From contig JBKBWQ010000001.1 in the NCBI GenBank assembly GCA_046314355.1, forward strand, positions 672,001-736,000: DNA of 64,000 nt, given 5' to 3'. The notes under the pieces were generated by a model. That model worked only from the letters and a program-made list of their open reading frames with translations. It did no database searches and had not been told where the DNA came from. Positions 12,808 through 36,500 of the stretch are shown piece by piece. Each line of letters opens with the position of its first letter. Position 1 is the first letter of the stretch. The translations under genes were made by a program, and so were the position numbers. Source of the DNA: Candidatus Altimarinota bacterium (GTDB taxonomy: Bacteria; Patescibacteriota; Gracilibacteria; 1-14-2-50-48-13).

Positions 12808-12825
12808 TGAAGACTTCTTCCTACA

Positions 12826-13747: not shown

Positions 13748-13850
13748 ATATATTACACAGCTATTTTGATTCTTTATTAAAGAATATCCCTTCCTCTCCC
13801 CTCTCTTTTTCATTATAGTGATCCCAACTTTACCTCTCATCTTACCCTCT

Positions 13851-14411: not shown

Positions 14412-14424
14412 GAAAATAATTTTT

Positions 14425-14943: not shown

Positions 14944-15071
14944 ACACAATATAGTAATAGCGGCACGTACTATCGTGTATCTATGCTCAGAAGTCAAGAA
15001 AAGTTTTGCGACTTCGTATTTGCAAAAAGTATAAAAAAAAGTAGGATAAGGCTACCTACTAATTATGAATT

Positions 15072-15383
15072 ATGAATCCTCAAGATATTCCTGAAATACT
15101 ACCAGCTGGTATGGACGAAGAAAGATTTTTAGAAATGGAAGGCCATGTCCTGAGAGTTATGGACATGAATGAGCACGATAAAATGGCAGAACCTATCGAA
15201 GCCGAGAGAGGCGAGCTCAGATATTTCTGCAAAAACAAAGACTGCACGCAAAATACAGGACCATATACGTTAGATTATGATCCTGAGACTACCTATAAAG
15301 CACCTATATGTCCTGCATGCGGAGGCTCCCAAGTAAGCTTAGGTACAAGAGAGAGTATCGTTTCACACTTCCGGATCAAATAG
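15072..15383 (+). CDS. Small Zn-ribbon protein
   Basis: Cysteine pairs CKNKDC and CPACGG, with an acidic N-terminus. Confidence 0.75.
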   Translation: MNPQDIPEILPAGMDEERFLEMEGHVLRVMDMNEHDKMAEPIEAERGELRYFCKNKDCTQNTGPYTLDYDPETTYKAPICPACGGSQVSLGTRESIVSHFRIK

Positions 15384-15385
15384 TT

Positions 15386-16447: not shown

Positions 16448-16550
16448 AGAGAAAAATTAGGATATTCATAGAAGTATAACATAAAGTGTATACTTCTTAC
16501 AATATCGCATTCATACAGAATATAAATTTATACCATTCTCAATCATAGCA

Positions 16551-17960
16551 CTACTTTTTTACCCTTGGAGTACTTGTTCCATCTGCTTGTTGCTTCAATA
16601 TTGATAACAAACGTATATATTTATCCACCGATTGTAATTCTTCTTTTGTAAGATTCGGTTTTTTGAAATCAATTTTTGTAACTTGATCAGCGTAGTTCTT
16701 GAGCGTAGTACTTTGCATTTTTGATATTTTTTGAGAAGAGATATATGTTCGTAACTCTGTATCATTTTGAAAAAGTAACTTAATATCTCTTAATTTATCA
16801 GACCATTTGTCGCTGCCGTATTCTTCTTGGGCAGCCATAGTGCCAGCTTCTTCTAGAGTTTGTGTAAATGAACTATGTTCCTCTTCACTTTCTTCTATTT
16901 TTTGAGATATTTTTGATGAAGTATCTACTAATAGCTTCCAATATGCATTATATTTTTCTACGTAATCTTGCGCATCAGTTTTGAGGGCAGTTCTTAGTTC
17001 CATTGCAGATTGCGTAATATTCGACAATTTATGCTGTTTAATATACTCATTAATTTTCTGTCCCTGAGGATTATATGTAAGAAAATGATCAATAGTATTC
17101 ATTCTATTTAATAATACATCTTGATCAATAAGTCCTGTACCATGCTCATTAGGACGAGTCTTGAAAAGGTCTTCCAAAGTTACTTTCATGAAGTTTCTTG
17201 ATTTATCTACATCATTTTGCAATGAATTATTATTTAAGATATTTCCTTTATCATCAAACACAAGCCTTCCTAAAGAAGAGGATCTATCAAGTAACTGACG
17301 TGACAGATCTTGTGAGACATATACTTCTTTTTGATTTAAGAAAGCTTTATATAAAGGAAGAAAATTAGTATGGTCTTTATTTACAGGAGAAAAATATGAG
17401 TATTCCTTCTTACCATTAATGGTCATTTCTTTTTGATAAATATTTCCTTTGAAAGGTGTGACTTCTTTAGAATCCATCTGCGCAAGTTTGATAGCTGATT
17501 CTGGATCTCGAATTAACTTCGAAAGATTAGTAAATTTTTCCTGTTCACCTGCATCATTCAATTTACTTACAGCATTATTAATTGTTTTAGCATTTTCTAA
17601 AAAAATGTTATTTTTATCAGCGCTTAAAGAAAAAGAATTAAGATCAAAATGTTTATTATTTAATTCTGTAGCAGTATTTAATAAATTGCTGGCTTCATTT
17701 TTTTTATCTTCTATTCCAGAATTAAATGTTGTTACCAATCCTCCTACATTTAAATCTATAGGCTTAATATTAAAACTCTTTACATCAATTTTCTTTTGAT
17801 CAAATCCGTTAACAACTTTTAATGCATTGTCTAGAACAACATCATTCTTTGTCTTAAAGTCTTTTAGTTTATCCGAAATATTATCAAAAGCATTAAATTT
17901 CTTTTCACTAAACGTGCCTTCAAATTTCGAATTATTAAGAGAAAAATTTTCAGAAGACAT
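16551..17960 (-). CDS. Large lineage-specific hydrophilic protein (Asn/Lys-rich, helical)
   Basis: 469-aa ORF in AT-rich DNA, no TM or signal peptide, 3 bp downstream of a small helical gene. Confidence 0.75.
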   Translation of the reverse strand: MSSENFSLNNSKFEGTFSEKKFNAFDNISDKLKDFKTKNDVVLDNALKVVNGFDQKKIDVKSFNIKPIDLNVGGLVTTFNSGIEDKKNEASNLLNTATELNNKHFDLNSFSLSADKNNIFLENAKTINNAVSKLNDAGEQEKFTNLSKLIRDPESAIKLAQMDSKEVTPFKGNIYQKEMTINGKKEYSYFSPVNKDHTNFLPLYKAFLNQKEVYVSQDLSRQLLDRSSSLGRLVFDDKGNILNNNSLQNDVDKSRNFMKVTLEDLFKTRPNEHGTGLIDQDVLLNRMNTIDHFLTYNPQGQKINEYIKQHKLSNITQSAMELRTALKTDAQDYVEKYNAYWKLLVDTSSKISQKIEESEEEHSSFTQTLEEAGTMAAQEEYGSDKWSDKLRDIKLLFQNDTELRTYISSQKISKMQSTTLKNYADQVTKIDFKKPNLTKEELQSVDKYIRLLSILKQQADGTSTPRVKK

Positions 17961-17963
17961 AAA

Positions 17964-18284
17964 TTAGTTGTTATTGAAGTTATTTAGAAGGTCGCTTGTT
18001 TCATTTTCTACCTCTTTAGACTCAAGCAACTCTATAGTATGAAGTAGTACTTTCTTTTCACTATTGATTTTTTCAGCAAGTGTATTGATTTTCTTAGCAG
18101 TTTCTTCAATGTCCTGCTGAATAAGTTCTTCATTTTGTAACACTAATTCCCTGCACTGTTCAAGAATTGGTTCAGCTTCCGCCATAGTCAGTTCAGATGC
18201 TTCTTCTTTAAGACGTATAGTTTTTATAAGTTCTGGTTTAATGTAACCATATGATGCTAATTCATCGCTAATTGGAGTACTCAT
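17964..18284 (-). CDS. Small acidic coiled-coil protein
   Basis: 106 aa, heptad-rich, ending E..E.ETSDLLNNF. Confidence 0.75.
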   Translation of the reverse strand: MSTPISDELASYGYIKPELIKTIRLKEEASELTMAEAEPILEQCRELVLQNEELIQQDIEETAKKINTLAEKINSEKKVLLHTIELLESKEVENETSDLLNNFNNN

Positions 18285-18361
18285 AAAGCAAAAATAATTT
18301 AATATCTACATAATATACAATAAAATTAATAATATGTAAAGTATTCAGAATGTACTATAGA

Positions 18362-18390
18362 AAAAACCTGTTCCATTTAAACAGGTTTTT
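18362..18390 (-). terminator. Intrinsic terminator downstream of proS
   Basis: AAAAACCTGTT-loop-AACAGGTTTTT inverted repeat. Confidence 0.65.
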
Positions 18391-18409
18391 CCACGAGCTT
18401 TAAAATTCA

Positions 18410-19840
18410 TCAATACGCCTTTGCAAAGAATATCCGTCTCTTACTCTCTTTTCCGCAATACACACAGTTTCCCTTTTCATCCTTCTCATCAAACAGTCTG
18501 CATCTCGTAGTCGCCTTTGTCTCTTCTTTGATCTTCGCTTCACAATCAGCACTCTCGCACCAGTGAGCATGTACGAATCCGTCCTCTGCTTCTATATGCT
18601 TCTTAAAGTCATCATAATTTTCTACTTTGTGAGTATGGCTATCTCTGAATCCTCTAGCAGTAGAGTACATAGACTCTTGAATACTAGTAAGTAATTCAGG
18701 AAGTTTTTGCACTATATCACTCATAGCAATAATTTCTTTTTCTCCAGTATCTCTTCGAGCTGCCACTACCTGTGAAGCCGCAAAATCCCGTGGTCCTATT
18801 TCTACTCTCACTGGTACTCCCTTCAACTCCCATTCAAAGAATTTTGCTCCAGGAGACATATAATCCCGAGTATCAACCTCAATACGAACATTTGGAAGTG
18901 CTTTCTTGATTTCTTCAGCAACACCAAGTACCTGAGCTTTTTCTTCATCAGTCTTTCCAATAGGTACAATAACTACCTGTGTTGGAGCTATGACTGGAGG
19001 CAATTGTAGTCCTTTGTCATCTCCGTGTACTACTACCAATGCTCCTATTACTCTTGTGGTAAGTCCCCAAGATGTTTGCCATACATATTCGAGTTCATTT
19101 TTTTCATTTTGAAACTCAATACCGATGGATTTTGAGAAGCTCTGCCCTAAGAAGTGAGAAGTACATCCTTGAATTGCTTTTCCGTCCTTTGCGAGAGCTT
19201 CAACAGTTGTCGTATATACTGCTCCTGGAAATTTTTCCCCTTCACTTTTCTTCCCTACATATCCAGGTATCGCGAGAAATTTAGAATAGAATTCATCATA
19301 CATCTCAATAGCACGCATCGTTTCTTTTTCTGCCTCATCAGCTGTAGCATGACAAGTATGTCCTTCCTGCCAAAGAAACTCTGTAGTTCGTAAGAAAAGA
19401 CGTGTTCTCTTTTCCATTCGAACTACATTTGCCCATTGATTAATAAGAAGCGGTAGATCTCTATGACTATGTATCCAGTCTTTAAATGTAGCATACATAA
19501 TAGTCTCAGAAGTAGGTCGAATAACAAGAGGCTCCTCAAGTTTTTCATTACCTACATGAGTAACAGTTGCAAGTTCAGGAGCAAATCCTTCCACATGTTC
19601 TGCTTCACGGTCAATAAAACTCTTTGGAATGAAAAGAGGAAAATAAGCATTTTTTACCCCTGCTGCTTTAATCTTACTATTCAGCTCAGTCTGAATATTT
19701 TCCCAAAGTGCGTAGCCGTAAGGTTTAATCACCATACATCCTTTTACAGGAGAGTAATCCGCAAGACCAGCCTGCAGAATTACGTCTGTATACCATTTTG
19801 AGAAATCTTCTTTTTGAGAAGTGAGTTTTTGTTGTGCCAT
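18410..19840 (-). CDS. proS: Proline--tRNA ligase (archaeal/eukaryote-type)
   Basis: Motifs DFSKWY, RPTSET, QWANVVR, EFLWQEGHT, TSWGLTTR, a C-terminal Zn-like domain, and a terminal FAKAY. No INS domain. Confidence 0.97.
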   Translation of the reverse strand: MAQQKLTSQKEDFSKWYTDVILQAGLADYSPVKGCMVIKPYGYALWENIQTELNSKIKAAGVKNAYFPLFIPKSFIDREAEHVEGFAPELATVTHVGNEKLEEPLVIRPTSETIMYATFKDWIHSHRDLPLLINQWANVVRMEKRTRLFLRTTEFLWQEGHTCHATADEAEKETMRAIEMYDEFYSKFLAIPGYVGKKSEGEKFPGAVYTTTVEALAKDGKAIQGCTSHFLGQSFSKSIGIEFQNEKNELEYVWQTSWGLTTRVIGALVVVHGDDKGLQLPPVIAPTQVVIVPIGKTDEEKAQVLGVAEEIKKALPNVRIEVDTRDYMSPGAKFFEWELKGVPVRVEIGPRDFAASQVVAARRDTGEKEIIAMSDIVQKLPELLTSIQESMYSTARGFRDSHTHKVENYDDFKKHIEAEDGFVHAHWCESADCEAKIKEETKATTRCRLFDEKDEKGNCVYCGKESKRRIFFAKAY

Positions 19841-19960
19841 GGGTGTGTATTCTAAATAACGATAGTACAGGTACTATAGGGAAAAATCACCAAATGTACA
19901 AGGAATGATTTCACTACTACAACCTAGCACACTGGAGTTCCGTCCAATAATTCGATGAAT

Positions 19961-20356
19961 CTATAAGCCTTTCAATTTCTCAAGCCCCCCTTTCCTTTTC
20001 ACAATATTTTTATAATCCCACTGAATATTTTCAGATTTTTGAAGCCAGATACGAAGATCTTCAGTATTTACTTCTTGTACATTTTTATACCTTTTTTGGG
20101 CAGCCTTAAAAGTACCCTCTATTTCTAAGCCAGTCTCATCAAAGGATTGTCCGCTCCAAAAGAGTAGTTGAATATCATTTTTACGTTTAGCATACCCTAC
20201 AATCGGATTTCCTTCCAGGAACCATACAGGATGACTATGCCAGACTTTGCTTTCGGCTTTAGGCAAAGAAGCATCGATTTCTGATGCTAAAAGATCACAT
20301 ATCGCTTTATCATCAGGAAGCTGTAATTCGTTGTATTGTATGATATCTTGATGCAT
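19961..20356 (-). CDS. DUF1801 (YdhG-like) protein
   Basis: Motifs SKVWHSHPVWFLEGNPIVGY, LLFWSGQSF, QWDYKNIVKRKG. Start placed at MHQDI. Confidence 0.85.
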   Translation of the reverse strand: MHQDIIQYNELQLPDDKAICDLLASEIDASLPKAESKVWHSHPVWFLEGNPIVGYAKRKNDIQLLFWSGQSFDETGLEIEGTFKAAQKRYKNVQEVNTEDLRIWLQKSENIQWDYKNIVKRKGGLEKLKGL

Positions 20357-20712: not shown

Positions 20713-22425
20713 TCACGCGAAGCGTATATGCACTCGTAGCTCAGCTGGATAGAGCGTTGGTTTGCGGAACCAAAGGTCGTAGGTTCGAACCCTGTCGAGT
20801 GCACCATATAGAAATTTTAAGGTACTCAACATAGTGTTAAGCTTGTTTGATGCAGGCTTTTTTGGTTCGACCACGCTAATACTCTTCTCTCCTTTAGGTT
20901 TGGCGAACCGAAACAGGATCTTTATTTTTAATTTTCCTTCTTCACTGTAGTAAGCCTCTATTCGTTCAACAAGGACAGAAATAATTGTACGTCTTTGCTC
21001 AAAGCTTAGATCATCTACTTTATCCTTAAAGTATAGAGCAAAGCCTTCAATCGCTTTGAAGGTCATTTCATGGTTAATGAGTCGCTCAAGTTCATCTAAT
21101 AGGGCTTGTTCACTTTTCATACAATCATTAATTGTTTTCTGATACTCAGCTTGCTTTCTATCCCTAAATTCTTCAGAAATACTTCCCTTATAGTAATCTT
21201 CCATAAGCCTCTCAAAAGATTTTTCAGCAATCTCCTTTTGTCTGACAACGTTCTCTATTTCACGCTGTTTACCTCGAACGTGGACTTTGGTGACAATTTG
21301 TTTTTTATAAATCGCAAAAAACTTTTTAGGGTTATTTATAGCCATCAGTACATGGTTCCACACAAAATTATCAATTACCTCTCCTGGTATCTCTAAATTG
21401 CTATACCTTAAACCATCCTCACGAATAAAAGCCTTATGACGATACGAATGCCCTCCTTTGGGTCTCATATATCCAATAAATTTCCTCTTTGATATTGGAT
21501 TATATATTTTTCTTGAAAGTAGGTACTCACGTTGTCCTCCTCCTTTATTACCACTAGTTTCTGTAATCTCATGAATAATCTCCTTAGCTTGGTCAAAAAC
21601 TACCTTCGTAATGATCTGTGGTGCCTTCTCTCTTACAACTCCATGATCCTTGAATGTGATCTCTCTATACCCCAAATAAATGCTATTTTTTAATATATCT
21701 TTAATAGATGTATCATACCATTGGGTATCCTTCACCTTAGAGCCTCGTTGATTAGACTTAGGGACATGTAGCTTATTCATTTCTATAGCAATTTCACCGT
21801 AGTTCTTGCGTTCAAGTATAAACCAAAAAAAGATCTGCTTTACCCATTTAGCTTCTTCAGGGATTACTTCAAGCTGTGAGCCTTTCTTATCTATATTTTT
21901 CACTTTTTTGTACCCATATGGTACAGCTGAACCCGTATAGTTACCAAGCCGAGCAGAGGCAATCTTCCCTTCCATCGTGCGAGTTTTTATTGTTTCTCTT
22001 TCAAACTCAGCCAAAGCACCAAAGATCTGGAATGTAAGCTTACCAATAGGACCAGTAAAATCTACATTCTCTTTGAGAGAATAGAAACTTACTCCATACT
22101 TCTGCATCTCTTCAAAAGCAAACAATAGATGTGAAAGATTACGGGACAAGCGGTCAATCTTCCATACAGCAACTAGGTCCACTTCTTTACGCTTCACACA
22201 CTCCATTAGTTCCTTGAATTTTGGACGGTTTAAATCTGCACCACTTAGCCCCTCATCAATAAATTCCCATTTCTTCTCATGGACCCAGTTATGTAATTTA
22301 CTGCGGTATTTTACTAGCTCATTTAGTCCATCAAGTTGCATAGCTAAGCCAAAGCCTTCTACTTGCTCTTCCGTAGAAACTCGGAGGTAAAAAGCTACTC
22401 GTACAGGTTTTTTGTCTTCTTCCAT
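20713..22425 (-). CDS. Large serine recombinase (integrase); last 29 codons run antisense through tRNA-Arg(GCG)
   Basis: Catalytic YLRVST motif, then DEGLSGA, RPKF, DRLSR, AEFERETI, PYGY (recombinase domain) and a coiled coil. Confidence 0.93.
   Translation of the reverse strand: MEEDKKPVRVAFYLRVSTEEQVEGFGLAMQLDGLNELVKYRSKLHNWVHEKKWEFIDEGLSGADLNRPKFKELMECVKRKEVDLVAVWKIDRLSRNLSHLLFAFEEMQKYGVSFYSLKENVDFTGPIGKLTFQIFGALAEFERETIKTRTMEGKIASARLGNYTGSAVPYGYKKVKNIDKKGSQLEVIPEEAKWVKQIFFWFILERKNYGEIAIEMNKLHVPKSNQRGSKVKDTQWYDTSIKDILKNSIYLGYREITFKDHGVVREKAPQIITKVVFDQAKEIIHEITETSGNKGGGQREYLLSRKIYNPISKRKFIGYMRPKGGHSYRHKAFIREDGLRYSNLEIPGEVIDNFVWNHVLMAINNPKKFFAIYKKQIVTKVHVRGKQREIENVVRQKEIAEKSFERLMEDYYKGSISEEFRDRKQAEYQKTINDCMKSEQALLDELERLINHEMTFKAIEGFALYFKDKVDDLSFEQRRTIISVLVERIEAYYSEEGKLKIKILFRFAKPKGEKSISVVEPKKPASNKLNTMLSTLKFLYGALDRVRTYDLWFRKPTLYPAELRVHIRFA
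20730..20806 (+). tRNA. tRNA-Arg(GCG), the integration target
   Basis: Acceptor GCACTCG/CGAGTGC, anticodon arm TTGGT-TT GCG GA-ACCAA, T-arm, encoded CCA. Confidence 0.96.
20802..20808 (+). other. att core CACCATA at the tRNA-proximal junction (tRNA C72-A73-CCA plus TA)
   Basis: Identical 7-mer at 30082-30088. On the minus strand it encodes Y540-G541 of the integrase. Confidence 0.75.
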
Positions 22426-22504
22426 GCAGTAAAAAAAAAGAATGATACAGGTATTGTATACATCTTTTTTCTTCCTCTCAACGTTTCTCTTTAATCTTTC
22501 ATAC

Positions 22505-22705
22505 TTAACCTTGTGGAGCTCTTGTATCTTTTAAGATTACACGCAGTATAAATTCATCATCTTCTTCTCTCTTATCTTCAGGAATTTCATCATCAAAAAC
22601 AGCCTCTATTTCAATTATATGGGTCCTTCTCCCCATTGGAGGTATTACTAGAATAGAAGGATTATCCTGCTTATTCTGCGCTGTTTTAAGAGGTTTTTTC
22701 TTCAC
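22505..22705 (-). CDS. Small protein upstream of the integrase (possible directionality factor)
   Basis: 66 aa, GTG start, basic N-terminus and acidic C-terminus. Function inferred from position only. Confidence 0.5.
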   Translation of the reverse strand: MKKKPLKTAQNKQDNPSILVIPPMGRRTHIIEIEAVFDDEIPEDKREEDDEFILRVILKDTRAPQG

Positions 22706-22785
22706 AAAAAATCAAGATAGGATTTGTTGTAGTGATCCTACTGATTTAAATTATGACCTCGTGACATCAGAAACCAGAAGTAATG

Positions 22786-23496
22786 TCACAACCAACCAAT
22801 CCTTTGTTTTATCTCTTCTAATTTTCTATGAGAGATCTGACGTACATTTGCCGCCCTACGAGTGTCTGTTTGTTCATCCCCTTCAGGATAAACTTCTGCA
22901 ACAATATCCTTCGATGAATACTTATATTCTTCATCAAATGTTTTCACTTTCTTCCCTCTTTGCTGAGATTTTTCTAATATCATCTTATCTCTATTAGCAT
23001 TCTTTTTTGGTCTATGTACTATAGCTTTATTAGGCTCTGAGAAATTTCTAATAATCTCCATGAGTTCATTAGAAACTAACAATTCTTTCTGAGACGGTTT
23101 ACGGTATGTAGCAATTGAAAGTGTACTCGGTTGATTATTCTCATAATGACGAACAACCTCGGCATTAGCTACTGGAGCCGTAATTTCATTAAAAATCACA
23201 TAAGTTTCTATAGCTCTTCTGTAGCGCTTATCCACTTTAAGCTCATGACACCTTTGATGTAGTTTATTGATGTCTTCGCACCAATCTTCAATCTTCTCAT
23301 CTAAGTTTATATACCATTCAGTTTTTTGCTCACCACCTTTTACAGTGAAAGGAAAACCTTCTAAAGGTATATTATAGCATTTACGAAGCTCTGTGACATT
23401 TTCTTTAAATGCTGGAATCTGAACAAGCAATTCCATTAGGTTGAGATTTGCTTGGTAAACATTCTTATCAAAGTCTTCATTCTCAATCTGTTTCAT
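22786..23496 (-). CDS. Hypothetical protein, possible C-terminal HTH-like DNA-binding domain
   Basis: 236 aa with a basic C-terminus (RDKMILE...YSSKDIVAEV...AANVRQISHR). Start overlaps the OLD gene stop. Confidence 0.7.
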   Translation of the reverse strand: MKQIENEDFDKNVYQANLNLMELLVQIPAFKENVTELRKCYNIPLEGFPFTVKGGEQKTEWYINLDEKIEDWCEDINKLHQRCHELKVDKRYRRAIETYVIFNEITAPVANAEVVRHYENNQPSTLSIATYRKPSQKELLVSNELMEIIRNFSEPNKAIVHRPKKNANRDKMILEKSQQRGKKVKTFDEEYKYSSKDIVAEVYPEGDEQTDTRRAANVRQISHRKLEEIKQRIGWL

Positions 23497-25489
23497 GACT
23501 TCTAGTTAGATCTTGAATATCATTCCAATGGACAATTTGCATGTGCAATTTTTCAATCATGGAAATTAAGACTTGGTTATCTTTGAGGTCTTGTATAACC
23601 ATGTTTTTGGTAACTTTTAATGCAAACCTTTTCTTGGCCTTAGTATAACGATCTTGATATTTTTCATCTAGAGATTTCTCAAATGGTTGACCTCTTTTAT
23701 TCATTTCATAGGTATCAGGTACAATGTCATCTTTATATGCCCTGACCAAGCAATCTCTAGTTAAGTAATTCTCTATTTCAGTTCCATCTGTTATCCATCC
23801 AAATCCATGTCCCTTATTAGCTTCTGCCTCAATCTTAATTTTAGTTGACCACATATTATCTGTTTCACTATCTCTATCCATCAATACAACCGCATTTCTA
23901 TTTATATGTAACATACTTATAAAGTCTTGATTAGCTTCTTCTACTTCGTCTATCCAATCTTGATCCAAATCAAAATTTGAAAGTACTTTTCCACCGTAAA
24001 ATAGTATTGAAAAATCTCTACCCTCAACAACTTTTGTAATATTTTCATTTAATGCTTGAAAAAGGTTTAGCCACTTTAGAAGATATATTCTATCTGAAGG
24101 ACCTTCCACCCATATAATTCCATTTGACTGCAATAGATCAGAAGCAAATATACCCAGCTCCCTACAAAGGTCTGACATAGAATTACAGTCTCCATTATCA
24201 TTAAAAATATTTTCTACTCTGCTGAATGTTTCCTTTGCATCCATCGAAACCTTTATAATTTTCGTTGAAGTTCTTATTTTCAGTAATGGATCAATAAACG
24301 TATTTGAGTGAGTCGTAATGAAAAATTGGTATCCATACTTTTTACTTTGATCCATTAAAAACCTTATGAATGCTCTTTGTAGCTTTGGATGGAAGTGTGA
24401 TTCAGGTTCTTCAATTAAAATTAATGAATTCTCTGTCGATAGAATAATCTCGAGAGACATATAAATTAATTGTTCAAGACCAGCTCCAAGTTGCGAAAGC
24501 GGAAGTATCTTATCATCAAGACTTAGCTCAATAGCATACTGTGTACTCTCATTTATATCTGGAAATATGAGCTCTAGCCTATCTATTTGATTTTCAGGTA
24601 TGGAAGGAAAAAGTAGTTCTCTAAGCATTTGCTTAACTTGTAGGAATTTCTTTCGTTCGGCGATTCTACCGTCTCTAAGATTCATTAATCTCTGGACAAT
24701 TCTACCTTCTAAATCATCTTTTAATTCATTATGTCTCTTCTCAAATAAAAGAGGATATATTCCTCTTAATGGTTGAATGGTTGTCAAACGATTACTAGAG
24801 ATGCTACGCAAGACCCTTTTCAACACTATGCCTACATCACCAAACATAGACCTCGCCTTAACAGCTATACCTTCAGGTACGTGGCGACTAACAGGATCCA
24901 TTGCACTAATAATTCCTCTCGATTCATGTACGCTAATTACCAAATTTTCTTCTATATCAAACAACGTATACTCTCTACCATTCTCAGAATCAGGGATAGA
25001 TAATCCAATAAGTTCTGCCTGCAATTCCATTTGATGAATTTCCTTTATCTTAAATTTAAATTTTAAAGATTTTTCTTCTCTTTCTGATTCTTCCCATAAT
25101 GTGGGTATAATTTTTATTTGACGTTGCCCTGCATTAAAAAATGGTAGAATAGTTTTTATTTCATCAGCTTCTTCTTTTGTAAAAACCAAAGCAAAAGAAA
25201 TATATAATTCTTTTGGAATTTTCTGCATATAAAAAAGATCCTCAATTTTTCTTATAAAACTAAGCTTAGTCTTAATATCATCAATACCTATTACATGAGT
25301 AAAGTGTTCCCTATTATTCCATTCAGCAGAAAACAAGATATAATGAATGAATAGTAACGATTTTAAAACATTAGATTTACCTTCATTGTTTGGTCCTATA
25401 ATCAAATTATATTTATCAAAAGTGACATCTAAAGGGTGTTCTTCTGAAAAACTAAGCATATTACTAATATGTAGACTTTGTATTTTCAT
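23483..25489 (-). CDS. OLD-family ATP-dependent nuclease (ABC ATPase plus TOPRIM)
   Basis: ATPase: Walker A GPNNEGKSN, signature LGAG, Walker B LIEEPESHFHP, ITTHSN. TOPRIM: WVEGPSD, DRD, EIENYL. Confidence 0.9.
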   Translation of the reverse strand: MKIQSLHISNMLSFSEEHPLDVTFDKYNLIIGPNNEGKSNVLKSLLFIHYILFSAEWNNREHFTHVIGIDDIKTKLSFIRKIEDLFYMQKIPKELYISFALVFTKEEADEIKTILPFFNAGQRQIKIIPTLWEESEREEKSLKFKFKIKEIHQMELQAELIGLSIPDSENGREYTLFDIEENLVISVHESRGIISAMDPVSRHVPEGIAVKARSMFGDVGIVLKRVLRSISSNRLTTIQPLRGIYPLLFEKRHNELKDDLEGRIVQRLMNLRDGRIAERKKFLQVKQMLRELLFPSIPENQIDRLELIFPDINESTQYAIELSLDDKILPLSQLGAGLEQLIYMSLEIILSTENSLILIEEPESHFHPKLQRAFIRFLMDQSKKYGYQFFITTHSNTFIDPLLKIRTSTKIIKVSMDAKETFSRVENIFNDNGDCNSMSDLCRELGIFASDLLQSNGIIWVEGPSDRIYLLKWLNLFQALNENITKVVEGRDFSILFYGGKVLSNFDLDQDWIDEVEEANQDFISMLHINRNAVVLMDRDSETDNMWSTKIKIEAEANKGHGFGWITDGTEIENYLTRDCLVRAYKDDIVPDTYEMNKRGQPFEKSLDEKYQDRYTKAKKRFALKVTKNMVIQDLKDNQVLISMIEKLHMQIVHWNDIQDLTRSHETD

Positions 25490-25582: not shown

Positions 25583-26305
25583 TTATAAATTCACATAAAA
25601 CTGTCCAAGCTTCCCATAGTCTATTTCATACTTCAGATCTTTCAATGTCGCATCTATAGGAACCTCAAAAGCAACATATCCACGTGTCTCTCTTGTATTC
25701 TCAAGCTCTCCACTGCTTAGAAGAGGAGTTTTGTCTGTCACTGCCATCTGGTATGCGTAACTATCCTTGTCATAAAGGGTAAAGTTATAAGCATTATAGG
25801 AAATTGTTTTTCCACTATTATTACTGATCCGAACATCTGCAATAACATACTTCTTTCCTGCATCTGCTTTAAACAAAGATGATGAATAATCTGCCACACT
25901 ACTTACTGTAAGAGTGACGCCATTTAAAGTACCCGCAGAGTTGAGGCTGATTGTTTTAGATGTCTCAGTCGTATTTACATTTGTGTTTCCGTTAGAGGTA
26001 GTCGTAGTAGGATTTTTTAACATCGTATCTATCTGTGCCTTCGTATAGTAGTTTTTTGCTACGTACGCATTGTATCTATTCCACATTGCAGAAAGCTCCG
26101 CACGGTTTACGTTGTTTCCTGGTTTGAAGGTCCCATCGGGATTACCTCGTATAACGTCCCAATCTACCATTTTCTGGACATCGTTATAGAACCAGTCACT
26201 TGGACTGACATCGCTAAAACTCATTTGAGCTGCGAACGTTGCACCCACTCCGAAGAGAGAACCAACGAGAAATATTGCTGTGCCTACTGCCATTGTTTTT
26301 TTCAT
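25583..26305 (-). CDS. Secreted SLH-domain protein with a C-terminal DUF4352-like Ig fold
   Basis: Likely start MKKTMAVG (signal peptide). SLH motif FSDV..SDWF....GNPDGTFKPGNNVNRAE, a Thr/Asn linker, then GKKYVIADVRISN...F.LYD...GYVAFEVP. Confidence 0.85.
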   Translation of the reverse strand: MKKTMAVGTAIFLVGSLFGVGATFAAQMSFSDVSPSDWFYNDVQKMVDWDVIRGNPDGTFKPGNNVNRAELSAMWNRYNAYVAKNYYTKAQIDTMLKNPTTTTSNGNTNVNTTETSKTISLNSAGTLNGVTLTVSSVADYSSSLFKADAGKKYVIADVRISNNSGKTISYNAYNFTLYDKDSYAYQMAVTDKTPLLSSGELENTRETRGYVAFEVPIDATLKDLKYEIDYGKLGQFYVNL

Positions 26306-26331
26306 AGTTTTTGAAAAAAAGGGATAAAAAC

Positions 26332-26465
26332 AAAAAGGACGTACATGGCTGATCCAATACGCTTGCCCATAAGGTAGCCTTACTGGCATGTACGCCCACC
26401 TCTGGCAGTAAAGCCTTAGGAAAGAACGTTCCTTATGGAATTGGTAAACTATATTGGATCAGCAC
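26332..26465 (-). ncRNA. Putative structured 5' leader RNA (three nested helices, 11-bp loop-tail helix, U-tract)
   Basis: P1 13 bp (26451-63/26348-60), P2 8 bp (26431-38/26367-74), P3 10 bp (26406-15/26376-85). Loop 26387-97 is complementary to 26337-47. It begins just downstream of a TTGCAA..TGcTACTAT promoter. Confidence 0.72.
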
Positions 26466-26502
26466 GAAGATAGTAGCAGAAACAGAATCTTTTGCAATTA
26501 TA

Positions 26503-26552
26503 GTTTTCAACGTTGGAAACCCTCATTTCAGGGAGTTTCCAACGTTGAAAAC
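26503..26552. repeat. Perfect 18-bp inverted repeat whose arms are themselves near-palindromic
   Basis: GTTTTCAACGTTGGAAAC-14 nt-GTTTCCAACGTTGAAAAC. Confidence 0.9.
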
Positions 26553-27025
26553 CCCTAAGTATTTTAGAAAATACAGACCTAAAATTGACATATTTGTAAA
26601 TTAACAGCTAATCTCACCAAAGTACTGATTTAGCTCAAGCAAATCCAACCACAGATGCTAAATTATTACACATTTACAATACATGTATTTTATTTTTTTA
26701 TTCTATCTATCATTTGCGGTATGTCTGCTTAAAAAAGAGATATTTATATTTCATAGCATAAACATATCTTCTCTTTTGTGAGAGCTAACTTTACCTATTT
26801 TTACATTCATATTTATAAATAAGAATAACCTTTATCTTTAAGTAAATCCAACCAAGTATTTATACTTTACAGTATACTTTTTCTCCTTTCTTATTACAAT
26901 TTCTATATAAATCCCATTTTAGAGATAATCTCAATTATAAAAAAGCTTTAGAAACTGTATTATTTTGACTTATTCATGACCTGAATCTTATAAAATAGCT
27001 TAAATCTCTACCACCTCACTTATAA

Positions 27026-28534
27026 ATGCCAAATACACCTAAAACACGAATTAATATATATTTCTCTGACTTTTTTAATATTGCTCCTAAAGTTATAGAG
27101 GACTTTGGAGCATTAAATATTTCGTTAGTCTCAGATTTACCTTTATTTATAGACCCCTTTCTTCTCTTCCACAGTACAAAAGAACCCTATAAAGAAATTC
27201 ATATTCAAATAATAAAGTATCTACATTTCTTACGAAAGACATCTACATCCGTTAGTATTGGAGACAAAGGAAGATTAAAAACTTTGTATAGTTTTTCAGA
27301 AGTAAAACAAACTTGGTTAGGATTTACCGAAAACAGCAATAAGGGTAAAGGTCTAGGACCAATCTTTGCATCCAAGTTAGACAATAATTTACGCAAAATT
27401 TTTAAACAGTTTGGGGAAGAAGAAGTAACTCAATCAAGTCATCTAGAAAAACTTTGCTTATTAGAGAAAGGTGTTGGAGCAGATTCAATAAGTGATTATA
27501 CGACAAATCTAATATGGGGCTTTCTTGCTGAATATACAGAAGAGTTTGCAAAAGCACATTTATCCGCTGCACAATGTAAATTAGTCACTATCCCAAGAGC
27601 TTTCTTTAATGAAGAAACTGAAATGTGGGTATCAAAGAACTACACATTGCCATATATAAATGGTGATTACGTCCTTTTGACTCCTATAGACATAGTAGCC
27701 AGAGAAAAAAATTGGATAAATAGAGACGATCTTATTAAAGATTTTGAAGCTATTCCTGAAATAATTACTAATGAAGAACTCAGATCTGGTATTAGTAATT
27801 ATTTTTGTAAAAAACTAGCAGAAAAGTCACCTAACTCTTCGCCTACGGCTGAAGATAAAGTATATGCTATTAACAGCACCTTCCATCAATTTCCAGAATT
27901 GATCGATTACTATATTCTCTTAAAAGAAATAACTGGCGACAAAGCTAGTAAGATTAATAAGGAGGAAATAAGCCATATGAGAGAAGCTGTTATTAAAAGA
28001 GCCAATGCATTAGTAGATCTTCTAAGCCATTGTACTAAATTCTATGACATAGAGGGAAATACGTATGAAGAGGCATTAAAACGTATCCAGTATTTAAAAC
28101 ATGTAATAGAGGATGAGGATGGCTATAGAATTTTTCATCAAAATGGCACTGTAAAGAAACGAGAATCTGATATTCATGCACTTTTCAAACTAACTTGGTG
28201 TGGAACTAAGTATGATGTAAATTCTGAGGTAAATAATGGACGTGGTCCTGTAGATTTTAAAGTCTCATTAGGAAGTACTGATAAGACTCTTGTAGAATTT
28301 AAGTTAGCTTCTAACCCTCAGCTAGAAAGGAATTTACGCAATCAGGTAGAAATATATAAAAAGGCTAATAAGACCAAAAAAGCCTTAAAAGTAATATTAT
28401 ACTTCACGAAAGGAGAGTTAATCAAAGTAGAAGGCATCTTAAAAAAATTAGGTAGAGAAAATGATCCAACCATTATACTTATTGATGCACGTAATGATAA
28501 TAAGCCTTCTGCTTCAAAAGCAACCACACATTAA
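27026..28534 (+). CDS. Uncharacterised protein with a probable C-terminal PD-(D/E)XK nuclease fold
   Basis: N-terminal DLPLFIDPFLLF. C-terminal RESDIH...EVNNGRGPVDFKVS...LVEFKLASN...QVEIY matches the D...ExK nuclease pattern. Confidence 0.72.
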   Translation: MPNTPKTRINIYFSDFFNIAPKVIEDFGALNISLVSDLPLFIDPFLLFHSTKEPYKEIHIQIIKYLHFLRKTSTSVSIGDKGRLKTLYSFSEVKQTWLGFTENSNKGKGLGPIFASKLDNNLRKIFKQFGEEEVTQSSHLEKLCLLEKGVGADSISDYTTNLIWGFLAEYTEEFAKAHLSAAQCKLVTIPRAFFNEETEMWVSKNYTLPYINGDYVLLTPIDIVAREKNWINRDDLIKDFEAIPEIITNEELRSGISNYFCKKLAEKSPNSSPTAEDKVYAINSTFHQFPELIDYYILLKEITGDKASKINKEEISHMREAVIKRANALVDLLSHCTKFYDIEGNTYEEALKRIQYLKHVIEDEDGYRIFHQNGTVKKRESDIHALFKLTWCGTKYDVNSEVNNGRGPVDFKVSLGSTDKTLVEFKLASNPQLERNLRNQVEIYKKANKTKKALKVILYFTKGELIKVEGILKKLGRENDPTIILIDARNDNKPSASKATTH

Positions 28535-28551
28535 CATATTTTCAGATAACA

Positions 28552-29373
28552 ATGAAGAAAGAAAAAAGTACAGGTAAATATCAAAAACCGATAACAGGAC
28601 TTATGATTTTGGCATATATATTCTTTGCAAAAGAACTATTACCAACAATCAATGAGGGGTTTGATTTTGTTGCTAATATGACAAAGACATTCGGAGTTGA
28701 TAACTCAAAACAAGTTGTATTTGAACCAGATACATATATCCAAGAAGAACTTTTTGCCAATTTTAAGCCTGGTATGAATAGTCAACTGCTTACTGAGAAA
28801 TTTGGTTATCCAAAGTTAATAAATAATATTAATGACTCAAAGCGCTATTTACAGTGGGAAACTAAGAAATATAGTATGGGAACTATAATTGAAAAGGATA
28901 CAGGAAAAATAGAAATGCTAGCTATATATAGTCCTGAATGTAGAGGTACAGTAAAACTACCAAATACTGACATTCAAGGAGTACTTTGCCAAACAACATA
29001 CCCTATAAAGGAACTTTCAGACGTCACCATGCTTATACTTGGAGGTATGAAATATGGTGGTTATTTTGAAGCATATGCATCTGGAGCATGGAATAGTTTT
29101 CAAAGAGAGTATGTCGGCACAAGCTCAACGGGCACAGCTCCATATGTAGAAACAAGTAAATCAGCTAATCCAATTCTAAATTTTATTTATGATAATGATC
29201 TAGTTCACTTAAATCCAGAATCATTACATTTTAGTGAGTATATAAAAAATCCATCTTTTGTAAAAGCACGGACTGAGTCTAAATATAATTTTTACGCTAC
29301 TAGTAATTATAGCACTGAATTATCTGATCTTGAGACGGTATATACTACAATGGAACGTCCATATACATACTAA
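28552..29373 (+). CDS. Single-pass membrane protein with a large extracytoplasmic domain
   Basis: Basic N-terminus followed by a hydrophobic helix (ITGLMILAYIFFA). 17 bp after the nuclease-like gene. Confidence 0.7.
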   Translation: MKKEKSTGKYQKPITGLMILAYIFFAKELLPTINEGFDFVANMTKTFGVDNSKQVVFEPDTYIQEELFANFKPGMNSQLLTEKFGYPKLINNINDSKRYLQWETKKYSMGTIIEKDTGKIEMLAIYSPECRGTVKLPNTDIQGVLCQTTYPIKELSDVTMLILGGMKYGGYFEAYASGAWNSFQREYVGTSSTGTAPYVETSKSANPILNFIYDNDLVHLNPESLHFSEYIKNPSFVKARTESKYNFYATSNYSTELSDLETVYTTMERPYTY

Positions 29374-30518: not shown

Positions 30519-33500
30519 ATGTTTTATACAAAAACAAAAAAGGTATCAACGCTGTTCCTGCTCTCTGCATTTATCTTTGGATTCATACTCAATTCAGAAT
30601 TAGTCTTTGCAGCCAATGTAGCGCCCGTTGCATCCGATGTTTCTATTACTGGCGGCACCAATGTCGGCGACCTTCTTACAGGTAACTACACTTTTAGTGA
30701 TGCTGATAACGATTGGACTGCACTAGGCGGTGCGGGAAATGCATATAATGGTGAAACATGGAGACCAAAAATGAAGGTTGACCAATCAGGAAACGTATAT
30801 TTTGCATTCGGTTCAGATATACCTAATGGTAATAAAGGTACAGTGACAAAATACGATCCTAATACACAAAGCTGGTCATTTGTAGGTACGCCGTATTTCA
30901 CACCTGGAGCTGCTCGTGATGTAGGGCTAGATATTGATTCAAATGGCACTCCTTATTTTGCATTTCAAGATGAAGCAAATTTTTATAGACCCTCAGTGAT
31001 GAAATTTAATGGTACGTCATGGGTATACGTAGGATTACCTGAAGTCTCTAATGTGCCTATAAATAGCCAGTTAAATCTTGTTTTGGATAGTAATGACTTA
31101 CCATATATCTCGTATGTAAATGATACTAATTTTAAACTTAAAGTATTGAGATTCAATGGCACCTCTTGGGTTGATGTTGGTCCTGCTGGTGAACCATCCA
31201 CTGATGCTGCCCGTGGTGGATCTCTTGCTCTTGATGGAAATAATGTACCTTATATTACTTACGCAATCGCGCCCTCTGCTGCGAATGGATATAATTATGG
31301 TAAAGTAATAGTAAAGAAGTTTAATGGTACCTCATGGATTGATGTTGGTCCTGCTGGTGGTGTTAGTGAAGAAACAGCAACTGATGTCACTATGGCTATT
31401 GACTCTAATAACGTACCTTATTTTGTTTATTCCAATACTACTGGAGGTAATAAGGCACTGAAATTCAATGGCAGCGTTTGGGAATATATTGGTTCAAATA
31501 GCGGTTCAGTCACACCAGTATTTGGAGCTAGTAGTCCATATCTAGCCCTCGATGATAATGATGTCCCATACGTAGCTCTTGAGGTTGTTGACTTTAATGA
31601 TGGAACCTACTCTAATTCAGTAAGAAAATTTAATGGTACTTCTTGGGAAACTGTAGGCAGCGATAGTTTTACCCCTGCCCGCGGATATATCCCGGTATTG
31701 GACTTTGATGCAGACCAAAATGTCTATATAGGATTTGAAGACTTTTATTTTTCAGATCCAGATAATGATGTTGTATCTTATGGTACCGTAACGAAATATG
31801 CTATAGTAGATGAGGAAGGAGCATCTACCTATCGATGGCTAAGAGATGGTACTCCTATATCTGGAGCGACCGCTTCGACATACACTATTGTTACTGCCGA
31901 CCGAGGTACCACACTTACCTTTGAGGTCACTCCAGTAGCTGCTACAGGCACTTCTCCAGGTACCGCTGCAACGAGTCCAGCGTACTTCATCCCCGATGAA
32001 CCACCAGAAGCAAGTAATGTCTCTATCACAGGTAATCCGAGAACTGGAGAACTCCTCACCGGAGAATATACCTACAGCGACCCTGATGGGAATCCTGAAG
32101 GAAATACTACATTTCAATGGTTTAAGGATGATACACCCATATCAGATGCAACTACTACTACTTATACAGTTAAACCTAGTGATGTAGGGCATAATATTGC
32201 TTTTGAGGTAAGACCAGTAGCTTCAGCAGGTATCACAAATGGAACCCCTGTACGAAGTGTAAATGTTATGATCCTCAATGCTCCACCAATGGCAAGCAAT
32301 GTTTCAATCTCTGGAAATCCTTATGCAGGAGAAGTGCTTACAGGTCAGTATACCTTTAGCGATGCAGATAGTAATATTTGGAAATCTGTAAATAATAATG
32401 GTGATGCTTCACTTGGAACTAATGCTCAATCTGCTTTCTTGAGAAATGATGCAGCAGGCAAACTCTATATGGGATATGTAGACCAGAATTTCTTAGGTAC
32501 AGTGACAACATATAACACGGTTACAGAGACTTGGGAGTATGTAGGTTCACCTGCCTTCACAAATAGCAATGTATATATGAGCGCATTTGATGTAAGCGAG
32601 ACTGGAACTCCATACTATGCCTTCATGGATGAATCAGTAAATTACCAGGCTACCGTAATGAAATATAACGGATCATCATGGGTACATGTGGGAGCATTAG
32701 GCTTTACGCCAGACCCAGTCAACAACATATATATTGATATAGATAGTAATAACACTCCTTATATTGCCTATTCTTCTCAACTAGACGCTAGTATCTATGT
32801 GATGAAATATAACGGCACAAGCTGGGTACAGGTAGGTACAAGTCCTGCAAGCGCATCTAATGCTTCTTTTGCATTAGATCATGACGGAACACCCTACATC
32901 GCATACTTAGATAACAACCATCTTGATTCTAACTTTAACCCAAAAACAACAGTAAAAAAATTTAATGGTACAGCTTGGGTAACTGTGGGCACAGAGGGAT
33001 TTAGCCAAAATGGAGCAACATACACAAGCATTACATTTGATAGCCAGAACCAGCCATATTTAACCTATGATGATGTAGATCTCTATAAGACAATCACTCA
33101 AAAATTTAATGGTACAGCTTGGGAAACGGTAGGTCAGCCAACAGGAGTAGCATATTCAAATGCTCTTATATCTATTGATGCAAATGATGTGCCATACGTA
33201 GTGTATTCAAATTATGCAAATCAATCATCCTTAAATATCATATCATTTAATGGTACCTCATGGGTACCTGTAGGTGATACAGTTATATCAGATCAAACCG
33301 CAGCAAATCCTACTATAGCATTTGGTCCAAATAATAAGCTTTATACGGGTTACGTGGATTATTCGACTATGGACAGTGCGGCTACTGTAAAGACTCTTGA
33401 TGCTGGCGATATAGAAGGTGCAAGTGAATATGCATGGTTAAAAGACAGTTCTCCTATTTCAGGTGAAACTGGAGTCACATATACAGTCAAAGCTGAAGAT

Positions 33501-36500
33501 ATCGGACATACTATTATATTTCAGGTATCTCCACGTTCAGCTACAGGTACAAATCCTGGAACAACGCAGTCTAGTAGTGGTCTTGTCATTCTGAATTCTA
33601 CTCCAACTGCACCGTCTGATCTTTATGCCAATACTGCCGCAAACGGTGCACAGACAGGTCTTACAAACCCTACAATAACTAGTGCTGACATCGTCCTCTC
33701 AGCTATCTACAATGACCCTGACATGGGTGATACTGCAAATAAATATGATATTCAGATCGGTACTGACACAACATTTACCGCTCTTTATTATGCTAGCGGG
33801 ATGGCAGACATAAGTGATATTGCTCAAGGTGAACGCAGCCCTGATATAGTTCTCAATGGGTTTAATGCTGCAGACAATTTAACGTATTATTGGAGAATCA
33901 AATTCTGGGACGTGAATGGCGAAGAAGGTGCATACTCTCAAGCTGCTGAATTTACCACGGTATTAAATGATATTCCCACCTCACCTACTGATCTTTATGC
34001 AAATACTGCGGCTAATGGTGCACAGACAGGACTTACAAACCCTACTTTAAATGATGAGAATATTGTCTTCTCTGCTGTATACAATGATAATGATCCAACA
34101 GATACAGCAAAGAAATACCAGCTGCAGGTTTCAACAGACATTACCTTCAGCACTACGGATTATGACAGTGGTTCAGGGGTAGTTATTACAGACATCTCTA
34201 CGGGAGAACGCAGCATTGATATTGCTCCAGGATCATTTACTGCTGACGATAATACACCTTACTACTGGAGAATAAAGTTCTGGGATGCAAATGATGCGGA
34301 AGGACCATATTCTGGAACAGCTAGTTTCCTTACAAAAATCAATGATACGCCATCCGCACCAATAGATCTTTTCTCAAATACTGCTAGTGAAGGAGCACAA
34401 AGTGGTCTCAGCAATCCAACTCTTGCAGAAAACGAAATAGTCTTTTCAGCCATTTATACTGATGAAGATGCTACAGATACAGCCAACAAATACCAGCTTG
34501 AAATAAGCTCTGATAGCTCCTTTAATACTATAGTGTATGACAGTGGTTCAACAGGTACAAGTATTGCAGATATCAGCGAAGGAGATAGAAGTACAGATAT
34601 TATTCCTGGATTATTTACAGCTGAAGATGATTCTACTTATTACTGGAGGATAAAGTTCTGGGATGATGAAAATACAGAAGGTGCGTTCTCATCTGCTGCA
34701 AGTTTCACTACAAATATTAATGATGCACCAACAGCACCTACAGATCTCTTTGCAAATGACTCCACAACTGGTGCACAAAGCGGACTTACTGATCCAACTA
34801 CTCTACAGACTAGATCACTTGCCTTCTCTGCTGTCTTTAATGATCCAGATACTAACGATACTTCTACACAGTATCAGCTGCAAATATCTGCAACTAATAC
34901 TTTTAGTTCCACTGTCTATGACTCTGGAGCAGAAAGTATTGCAAGTATTGATGCAGGAGAGCGTTCTTCTGATATTACTACTACCTTTACTCCTGAATAC
35001 GAAACAACATATTACTGGAGAATACGTTTCTGGGATGCTGAGACTACGGCAGGAGCATATTCCTCCGCAGCTACATTCTCTGTACCTGATCAGGATGCTC
35101 CTGTAGTTACTAGTACGACGCCAGCAGATGGTGCAACAAACGTATCTACTTCCACAGAAGTAAAACTAAGCATTACTGACCTACTCTCTGAAGTGGATCT
35201 TGATTCTCTTGATATTTCAATAGGCGGCTCCAATGCTATTACCGATGGAGTTTGTGAACAAAATAATTTCAACTGCAGCACCAATCCAATCACAAACGGA
35301 TATGAGATCGTAATTACAAATACGAGTGGTGGATATGCTGCAAATACTCAGCACACAGTGGCATACTCTGTGCAGGATACTGCAGCTACACCAAATGTCC
35401 TTTCTGATGACTTCAGCTTTACTACTCTTGCAGCTCCTGATGCTCCTAGTGATCTCTATGCAAATATTTCCAGTACAGGTGTACAGAGCGGACTTGCAAA
35501 TCCTATGGATCTTAATGGACAGTCAGTTGCCGTATCAGCTGTACACAATGATCCACAGACAGAGGCGGCAGAAAGCTATAGACTTGAAGTTTCTACAGAT
35601 AATGGATTCAGTACGATCATCTTTGATAGCGGAAAGACACAGCTTACTTCTTCCGTCGCGGATGGAGCAAGAAGTCCTAGTATTACAATACCTGAGACTC
35701 TCGTAGATAATACGACATATTACTGGAGAATACGTTTCTGGAGTAATGCCGGTGAAGGTACACCTGCAACTGCAAGCTTTGGAATTCACCTCAATAGTGC
35801 GCCAACAGCACCAACAAATCTCTTTGCAAATGATGCATCCTCCGGAGCACAGACAGGTCTGACAAATCCTACAGATCTTAATAGTACTTCCCTCACCTTC
35901 TCTGGAATATACAACGATCCAGATACTGGCGATATAGCAAATAAGTATCAGCTTCAGATAAGTACTGATAATAACTTTTCGGCCATTGCATATGACAGCG
36001 GATCAACTGGTACAAGTATCACAAATATCATAGCTGGAAACCGCTCAGAGGATATCATTCTTGGAACAAGCTTTACTCCTGTAAGAGGAACAACCTACTA
36101 CTACCGTATTAAGTTCTGGGATGATAGTAATACAGAAGGAGCATTCTCCGCATCTGGTACGAGCAGTGCAACTTTCAAAGTAAAACTTGCTAACACTCCA
36201 ACACCTACTCCTCCAGTATCCGGCGGAGGTGGAGGCGGCGGATATACACCTCCGGCACCAGTAGGGACAAACACTAATACGAATGTACCTAGTACAAATG
36301 CCAATAACAATTCTACGAATACAAATAGTAATACTACTCCGAACAATAATACAAACACTACATCCCCAAACCAGAATAGTACAAATCCAAATACTTCAGG
36401 CTCAGGAGGAACTACTCAAACACCAGAGACTTCACACTCTCTCTGCAAGATTATGAGACCCTTTGATACTACAATCAGCGACGCTATTACTGAATCAGAA

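Follow-up and report, generated by a model that had tools for sequence, protein, structure and literature searches.

A family of pseudoknotted leader RNAs on serine-recombinase islands of CPR/Patescibacteria-like bacteria, with a proposed role as terminator/antiterminator

Several described classes of RNA resemble the leader RNA considered here in part. Intrinsic terminators, attenuators and the expression platforms of riboswitches share with it a G+C-rich helix followed by a U-tract in a 5' leader. As in terminator/antiterminator leaders, an upstream purine run can pair with the U-tract and, in one subtype (type B, see below), an earlier hairpin competes for the 5' arm of the helix. Unlike the helix of an intrinsic terminator, however, the terminator-like helix of the leader is a pseudoknot that engages the loop of a 31-bp hairpin and has arms 39 nt apart. 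Neither a sensed ligand nor a leader peptide is apparent. H-type pseudoknot riboswitches such as preQ1-II and SAM-II likewise pair a hairpin loop with a 3' tail bearing the expression signal, but they are far smaller, have many conserved unpaired nucleotides that contact the ligand and precede coherent sets of genes; none of them was matched in Rfam.

Mobile elements offer further comparisons. The P4 CI and P1/P7 c4 immunity RNAs belong to the Rfam C4 family. They too are leader-derived, and their loops pair with complementary sites in the leader of the same operon, leading to early termination or blocked translation; they differ in that their covariance model gives no match to the leader, whose partner site is intramolecular and adjacent and for which no extra genomic targets are enriched. 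In lambda (nutL/nutR) and HK022 (put), homologous leader RNAs stand at the heads of two divergent operons belonging to a single mobile element, where they control termination. Homologous leaders also start divergent operons of one element in the present family, a likeness by description, as nut and put make polymerase ignore downstream terminators whereas the leader carries a terminator-like helix of its own. The IS110 bridge RNA, finally, is comparable in being structured, 150-200 nt long, provided with its own sigma-70-type promoter and placed immediately upstream of the recombinase gene of a mobile element. There, however, the recombinase is a DEDD enzyme and here a serine recombinase, one third of the leader copies precede non-recombinase genes, and no complementarity of the leader loop to flanking DNA was found in the window (10-mers).

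Architecture of the leader in the window

The leader lies on the minus strand of the 64-kb window, by which we mean the whole stretch of DNA that was analysed (Table 1). A first-pass annotation had described a TTGCAA-16 bp-TACTAT promoter with an extended TG, the helices P1 (13 bp), P2 (8 bp) and P3 (10 bp), an 11-bp helix joining the apical loop to the tail directly after P1, and then UUUUUG and an ATG. It had also remarked that all deviations from Watson-Crick pairing are G-U on this strand. Each of these elements is present as described, the non-Watson-Crick pairs of the window copy being four, all G-U.

Table 1. Features of the leader and of the genes behind it, in window coordinates
Feature	Position	Strand	Description	Basis
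Inverted repeat	26503..26552	-	near-perfect; 20-nt arms, 10-nt spacer; stops 5 nt short of the -35 box	hairpin alignment
Predicted promoter	26470..26497	-	-35 TTGCAA 26497-26492; 16-nt spacer; extended TG 26478-26477; -10 TACTAT 26475-26470	
Leader RNA	26326..26463	-	first P1 base to end of U-tract; ~130-138 nt	sequence, folding, covariance models, covariation
P1	26463-26451 with 26360-26348	-	13 bp; 5' arm GCUGAUCCAAUAU (26451..26463)	
P2	26438-26431 with 26374-26367	-	8 bp; 5' arm CCAUAAGG (26431..26438)	
Alternative hairpin, proposed antiterminator	26392..26429	-	ACGUUC/GGGCGU, CCU/AGG, GGC/GCC; sequesters GGGCG and takes the P3 5' arm	predicted in MFE
P3	26415-26406 with 26385-26376	-	10 bp; 5' arm GGCUUUACUG (26406..26415)	
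Apical loop	26386..26405	-	CCAGAGGUGGGCGUACAUGC, 20 nt; bases 26397-26387 are the pseudoknot 5' arm	
Pseudoknot	26397-26387 with 26347-26337	-	11 bp; loop GGGCGUACAUG with tail CAUGUACGUCC; tail starts immediately 3' of P1	
U-tract	26326..26336	-	UUUUUGUUUUU (UUUUUG, more U); directly after the pseudoknot; predicted 3' end of terminated transcript	
Gene start	26305	-	ATG, downstream of the U-tract	
First gene behind leader	25583..26305	-	240 aa; signal-peptide-like N-terminus, SLH domain, DUF4352	
OLD/GajA/AriA-like AAA ATPase	23483-25489	-	668 aa; in probable operon behind leader	
ORF of no known family	22786-23496	-	236 aa; overlaps the OLD-type ATPase gene	
Large serine recombinase	20713-22425	-	3' end antisense through tRNA-Arg(gcg) 20730-20806	

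The window copy has a minimum free energy (MFE) of -49.4 kcal/mol (z = -3.86), and none of 200 shuffled sequences folds equally well. Nucleotides of the hairpin loop pair with sequence 3' of the hairpin, as in H-type pseudoknots, and the strand between the two pseudoknot arms is wholly paired to upstream strands (P1-P3). The remaining, purine-rich 5' part of the loop is able to pair with the U-tract in the window and, in many other members of the family, with the U-tract and beyond.

The 3' end has some of the properties of an intrinsic terminator. The G+C-rich helix is followed immediately by the U-tract, and for this reason the pseudoknot may act as one; the arms are separated by the 39 nt already mentioned instead of a short loop of about 3-8 nt, and a simple terminator scan does not call the site. 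Across the family, the pseudoknot is succeeded by a U-run of at least three in 59 of 60 members and of at least four in 40 of 60; the corresponding shares of control windows are 32% and 13%. This genome is also enriched in terminator-like sites of the hairpin-plus-U kind, positions 1-20000 of the window containing 20 where shuffled sequence has 11.0 ± 2.4.

At the other end, the predicted promoter of the window agrees with the consensus at 8 of 12 positions and is absent from the list of a simple consensus scan. A TAnnnT box about 7 nt upstream of P1 is nevertheless a feature of 31 of the 32 homologues, often in the form TATAAT and often with TG before it. Each arm of the inverted repeat further upstream contains the palindrome CAACGTTG, the two palindromes lying about three helical turns apart. 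The arrangement resembles, possibly, a double operator for a dimeric repressor; inspection by eye of the upstream regions of the other 31 copies revealed no such repeat. Another kind of repeat is seen upstream of the RNA in locus L154 (about 85-120), where three tandem copies of a 12-nt unit, GTGTAATAACAG, are iteron-like.

Distribution and covariation of the family

The leader belongs to a new, previously uncatalogued RNA family, which, on the reading favoured below, is also a new architectural variant of the terminator/antiterminator leader. A search of window positions 25800-27100 with Rfam 15 (4227 models) at E <= 10 gave only chance-level matches, the best of those overlapping the leader being to tmRNA with 5.8 bits, against a threshold of 47. 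At gathering thresholds the whole window yielded four tRNAs and nothing else, and seven other members of the family had no match at E <= 0.1. The first-pass view that the leader matches no known riboswitch, for which a run against Rfam had been the proposed check, is borne out by these searches. Annotated phage and plasmid records contain no blastn match to the leader, no account of the motif was found in the full-text literature, and the portions of PMC11109978 that a term search brings up hold none either.

A second copy, 79% identical to the first, is present in the genome from which the window comes. Between the two, 81 of 81 cells pair and five pairs have both partners exchanged; P1 accounts for two of these, and P2, P3 and the pseudoknot for one each. 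Covariance models were needed to go further because blastn over 60 relatives recovered nothing beyond these two copies. Run over the same class, the model built from them found matches in 6 of 150 other genomes. A model built from eight sequences found matches in 10 of 150 other genomes in a sample of the phylum and in 14 of 56 genomes of one family of that class; it matched none of 151 genomes from a different phylum, entered by way of an Oscillospiraceae MAG, and none of four further genomes. Exact 16-mer scans with the loop pointed to 13 viral and more than 119 genome loci in unrelated phyla, all discarded as chance matches, with the leader present in none of the 93 loci checked with the eight-sequence model.

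In all, the covariance models located 32 copies, spread over 28 genomes of this phylum, and metagenomes add 28 matches next to related recombinases. Three genomes carry two copies each, and the leader ranges in length from about 125 to 175 nt. The genomes that carry it measure 0.7-2.0 Mb. That of the window, at 1.69 Mb and 98% completeness, has no detected ribosomal protein L30, a protein recovered from 13 of 14 control genomes; a small genome lacking L30 is, we take it, consistent with CPR/Patescibacteria, and the genome looks CPR-like as the first-pass annotation had supposed.

Covariation among homologues, proposed at the same time as a check, supports all four helices. In an alignment of the 32 sequences fitted to the model for P1-P3, with the pseudoknot columns lying outside the model and shuffle controls that ignore relatedness, 93.6% of P1-P3 cells pair, compared with 63.1% in shuffles, and with the 11 pseudoknot pairs included the figures become 95.0% of 1237 cells and 67.9%. 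Pairs varying on both sides number 12 of 13 in P1, 8 of 8 in P2, 9 of 10 in P3 (29 of 31 for the three together) and 7 of 11 in the pseudoknot, giving 36 of 42 for all four helices, and the observed values were matched by none of 500 shuffles. Pairing reaches 97.4% of cells in P2 and 97-99% in the pseudoknot; when partners are slid by 1-3 columns it falls to 35-49%. RNAalifold, applied to the alignment, independently predicts ten pairs of P1 and also P3; P2 is not predicted. Gapless runs of loop-to-tail pairing of at least 10 bp are found in 30 of the 32 copies (mean 12.3 bp, maximum 19), the other two having bulges or insertions, whereas non-cognate combinations of loop and tail average 4.4 bp.

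The pseudoknot of the 32 copies includes 47 G-U cells, each of which would be an A-C mismatch on the other strand. Such strand specificity counts against a feature acting at the level of DNA, be it an att site, an origin or a single-strand promoter, a reading for which the location on a mobile element near a recombinase gene might speak. Also against it are the promoter box at a fixed upstream distance, the U-tract downstream and the element boundary, which is at a tRNA on the other side of the recombinase gene, so that we find a DNA feature scarcely credible. At the third pseudoknot pair (alignment columns 126/224; 26395 with 26339 in the window), 24 of 32 copies have a G-U wobble and 7 have G-C. 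A conserved wobble within a helix is a frequent mark of a recognition or metal-binding site.

Between constant flanks, the middle of the pseudoknot is hypervariable, with 25 different tail cores among the 32 copies, and the two copies of one genome differ there by a compensatory pair. Together with the conserved -10 box and the terminator-like end, this variability could indicate a stand-alone, trans-acting small RNA of about 130 nt, for example an island immunity or incompatibility RNA in the manner of P4 CI or P1 c4, with specificity set by the loop-tail core. We think this unlikely. The RNA is directed towards the adjacent gene in every one of the 32 copies and the partner of the loop is in the same molecule. 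Nor is there a match to Rfam C4 or any enrichment of possible targets, tail-like 11-mers (at most one mismatch) occurring 23 times in the genome and 52 times for the reversed control.

Genes and islands behind the leader

A cis-acting role fits the leader, since an ORF on the same strand begins within about 50 nt of the model match in 32 of 32 copies. The downstream gene encodes a large serine recombinase (LSR) in 21 of these, in one of which (L164) it is disrupted. The other 11 precede genes for SLH proteins, an SLH-nuclease (SNase), DNA methylases, Zn-ribbon proteins and unknown proteins. Of 80 metagenomic loci selected because they hold a related LSR, 26 contain a model match, which abuts the LSR start in 22; strong upstream matches were found in 5 of 80 loci on viral contigs.

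In the window it is a secreted SLH/DUF4352 protein that is encoded directly behind the leader, on the island, in agreement with the island surface-protein gene of the first-pass annotation. Three metagenomic loci have the same layout as the window, with a long-form leader, then one or two genes for membrane or secreted proteins and then the LSR gene. Because a consensus scan places a separate promoter-like site before the recombinase gene of the window, co-transcription of the genes at 20713..25489 from the leader is given here as probable. Between the first gene and the recombinase sit the OLD/GajA/AriA-like ATPase and the 236-aa ORF, which may be an island-borne defence pair. Elsewhere in the window, a divergent operon (27026-29373) encodes two proteins, one of 502 aa that weakly matches PD-(D/E)XK and PADLOC PDC-M36A and one of 273 aa without a family assignment, and positions 30519-37025 encode a 2168-aa SLH-anchored surface protein with Rha78A-like Ig and AIR9 domains and repeats of ~375 nt and ~145 nt.

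The LSRs are of ordinary architecture (Pfam Resolvase, Recombinase and Zn_ribbon_recom). In 8 of 8 loci (the window, L147, L148, L149, L150, L152, L345 and L346) the 3' end of the LSR gene overlaps a tRNA gene on the opposite strand, for Arg, Gly, Asn, His, Phe or Met, so that the island boundary is at the tRNA and the leader RNA inside the island. The islands therefore appear to insert at tRNA genes by means of a serine, not a tyrosine, recombinase, whose C-terminus may be encoded across the integration junction. As to the far end of the island, no direct repeat of at least 16 nt was found between 20.4 and 42 kb of the window. Two recombinase genes are unusual. That of L148 (8179-10749) meets no stop codon before running antisense through tRNA-Phe and, in frame, into an amino-acid-kinase gene; the resulting ORF of 856 aa is probably an artefact of the integration junction and not a true fusion. 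In L164 (1607-2798) the recombinase is split into two frames with residues ~200-313 missing, and the leader in front of it is intact.

Genes upstream of the leaders are also those of mobile elements, among them tyrosine integrase (four loci), primase and an AAA_25 ATPase. On one contig each of G313 and G303, two divergent copies of the leader lie ~5 kb apart, one directed at the LSR gene and the other at a cargo operon. In seven loci (L143, L153, L155, L156, L158, L168 and L171) the type A leader (defined below) is immediately preceded by a gene for a conserved four-Cys Zn-ribbon protein of ~200 aa, U1. No family in Pfam or PHROG covers this protein, and its AlphaFold model, which is poor (pLDDT 62.9), matches nothing in the PDB at E <= 0.001; the protein is a candidate for a partner of the leader or a directionality factor.

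In 21 of 32 genomic copies, and in 22 of the 80 metagenomic loci with a related LSR, the RNA directly precedes the LSR gene. This position and the presence of two internal loops of variable sequence raise the question of whether the RNA is a partner of the recombinase, as guide, directionality cofactor or att-site mimic, in the way of IS110 bridge RNAs. This is very improbable given the 11 of 32 copies that precede other genes, the ordinary Resolvase/Recombinase/Zn-ribbon architecture of the LSRs and the 10-mers of the leader, which recur in the 64-kb window at about the rate of chance and never at the tRNA end of the island. Characterised LSRs, to our knowledge, require no RNA, and this too was counted against a partnership.

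Related LSR genes that have no model match are in some cases preceded by other leaders in which, by eye, a hairpin loop pairs with a tail before a T-run (L185, L190, L195, L196, L199, L208, L212, L255 and L257). One recurrent form, GGGGUAAC/GUUAUCCC, was recognised by eye in L195, L199, L208 and L212; L185 and L190 show, likewise by eye, a minimal form. These leaders may be sister RNA families. A strict script requiring a long-range helix and a T-run found 20 cases upstream of 148 related LSR genes, against 0.7% of shuffles, and is an undercount because it missed 20 loci that have model matches.

Two subtypes and a possible switch

The 11 copies that are not directly before an LSR gene, both copies of the genome of the window among them, have a long J2/3 and are referred to as type B. 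In 11 of 11, a complementarity of 9-11 bp (-9 to -20 kcal/mol) links J2/3 to the 5' half of the loop and takes in GGGCG. Such pairing is present in only 1 of the 21 LSR-proximal copies (type A), where the competitor is at most a mini-hairpin of 3-4 bp within the loop. For the window copy, P1, P2 and P3 together have -35.3 kcal/mol, to which the pseudoknot duplex would add -16.6 to -20.7, while P1, P2 and the alternative hairpin have -48.4 kcal/mol. The similarity in energy of the two folds suggests a bistable element. The MFE structure of a 75-nt nascent chain is already the alternative hairpin, and the read-through fold is thus predicted to be the first to form in this copy.

We consider it somewhat more probable than the contrary that the leader is a cis-acting pseudoknot terminator/antiterminator for island operons in small-genome CPR/Patescibacteria-like bacteria. 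The first-pass annotation had offered a choice between a ring-shaped pseudoknot and a terminator/antiterminator switch, possibly sensing a protein or an invader RNA. The two may be one and the same thing. The switch is the best reading because type B keeps a conserved competing hairpin, which that annotation missed along with the family-wide link to LSR genes and the ability of the remaining loop bases to pair with the U-tract. An xrRNA-like ring was dropped by reasoning, as the 5' end begins in P1 and threads no ring.

The mechanism that we infer from the sequences, with regard to promoter use, termination, switching and input alike, would be as follows. Transcription probably starts ~7 nt past the conserved -10 box, at P1. 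The RNA would fold as the P1-P2-P3 hairpin, and the 3' half of its apical loop would then pair with the 11 nt that follow P1, the pre-folded hairpin presenting the 5' arm of a G+C-rich pseudoknot helix that, with the U-tract, would constitute an intrinsic terminator. In type B, J2/3, the 5' arm of P3 and the 5' half of the loop could instead form the alternative hairpin, which would be transcribed first and is close in energy to the pseudoknot fold. With GGGCG so buried the tail would stay free and polymerase would enter the SLH/DUF4352 gene and probably proceed to those of the OLD-type ATPase and the recombinase.

Type A may work in part differently. As the competing fold is at most weak there, it may be a constitutive attenuator instead of a switch. 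Many type A members have a U-run of just 3 nt, and the tail often ends 8-11 nt upstream of the start codon; lying so near, the pseudoknot might block translation too. In L159 there is only UU and the Shine-Dalgarno sequence, GAGGAG, lies within the extended helix. The short U-runs, and the burial of GAGGAG in L159, suggest that the mechanism of type A members of this kind may be translational.

A more general version of the constitutive view holds that the 5' hairpin and pseudoknot are, throughout the family, a fixed attenuator or insulator and a stabiliser of the mRNA 5' end, allowing a low and constant read-through and blocking island transcription from upstream. It agrees with the 3-4-bp loop competitor of type A, with P1 starting at the predicted +1 so that there is no 5' overhang, and with the seven loci in which the RNA lies between the same-strand U1 gene and the LSR gene. 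We nevertheless hold it to be rather unlikely, since the alternative hairpin of type B is conserved, with some compensatory change, and nearly iso-energetic with its competitor, which is hard to explain without switching, and since a conserved promoter straight before a terminator would be wasteful unless regulated.

If the terminator/antiterminator reading is right, the deciding input is more likely to be a protein or the kinetics of transcription than a metabolite. Few unpaired nucleotides are conserved across the copies, and for that reason no binding pocket or protein site can be named. A riboswitch, with a small molecule or ion selecting between pseudoknot and alternative hairpin, would make sense of the bistable architecture with its terminator-type expression platform, of the wobble conserved in 24 of 32 copies and of a conserved, GCAAG-like J2/1. 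It is decidedly unlikely, however, in view of the scarcity of conserved unpaired positions, the patchy, island-bound distribution (10 of 150 phylum-sample genomes, 14 of 56 in one family) and the absence of any metabolic theme downstream. Across the 32 copies the downstream genes do not belong to one pathway or transport function, and their unrelated functions (LSR, SLH, nuclease, methylases, Zn-ribbon) disfavour a metabolite sensor. The same mixture of genes, the confinement to islands, the few conserved unpaired nucleotides and the lack of trans targets disfavour sensor and recombinase guide together, and the findings favour a protein-responsive, kinetic or constitutive attenuator. A T-box-like sensor of tRNA was also dropped, on reasoning, for want of a specifier or UGGN logic.

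A broader proposal, more tentative and in our estimation distinctly less probable than not, is that the leader receives an island-wide signal, carried by an RNA-binding factor of island or host or by a small molecule, and through its pseudoknot terminator jointly switches on the LSR and the outward-facing cargo and defence operons. If true, mobile elements of the CPR would have an RNA-based lifecycle switch built on a terminator architecture not described before. The unusual design, in which the loop of a pre-folded hairpin supplies one arm of a pseudoknotted terminator helix, could also show how pairing at long range is able to trigger termination.

Almost nothing is known of gene regulation or the control of mobile elements in CPR/Patescibacteria, for which the family described here, with ~60 sequences, is well supported. 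Rfam could take it in and, as it marks tRNA-inserting serine-recombinase islands of these bacteria, it is usable as a finder of such islands. The leader would provide a concrete, testable control point for the expression of integrase and cargo which, in the window, includes an OLD-type defence ATPase.
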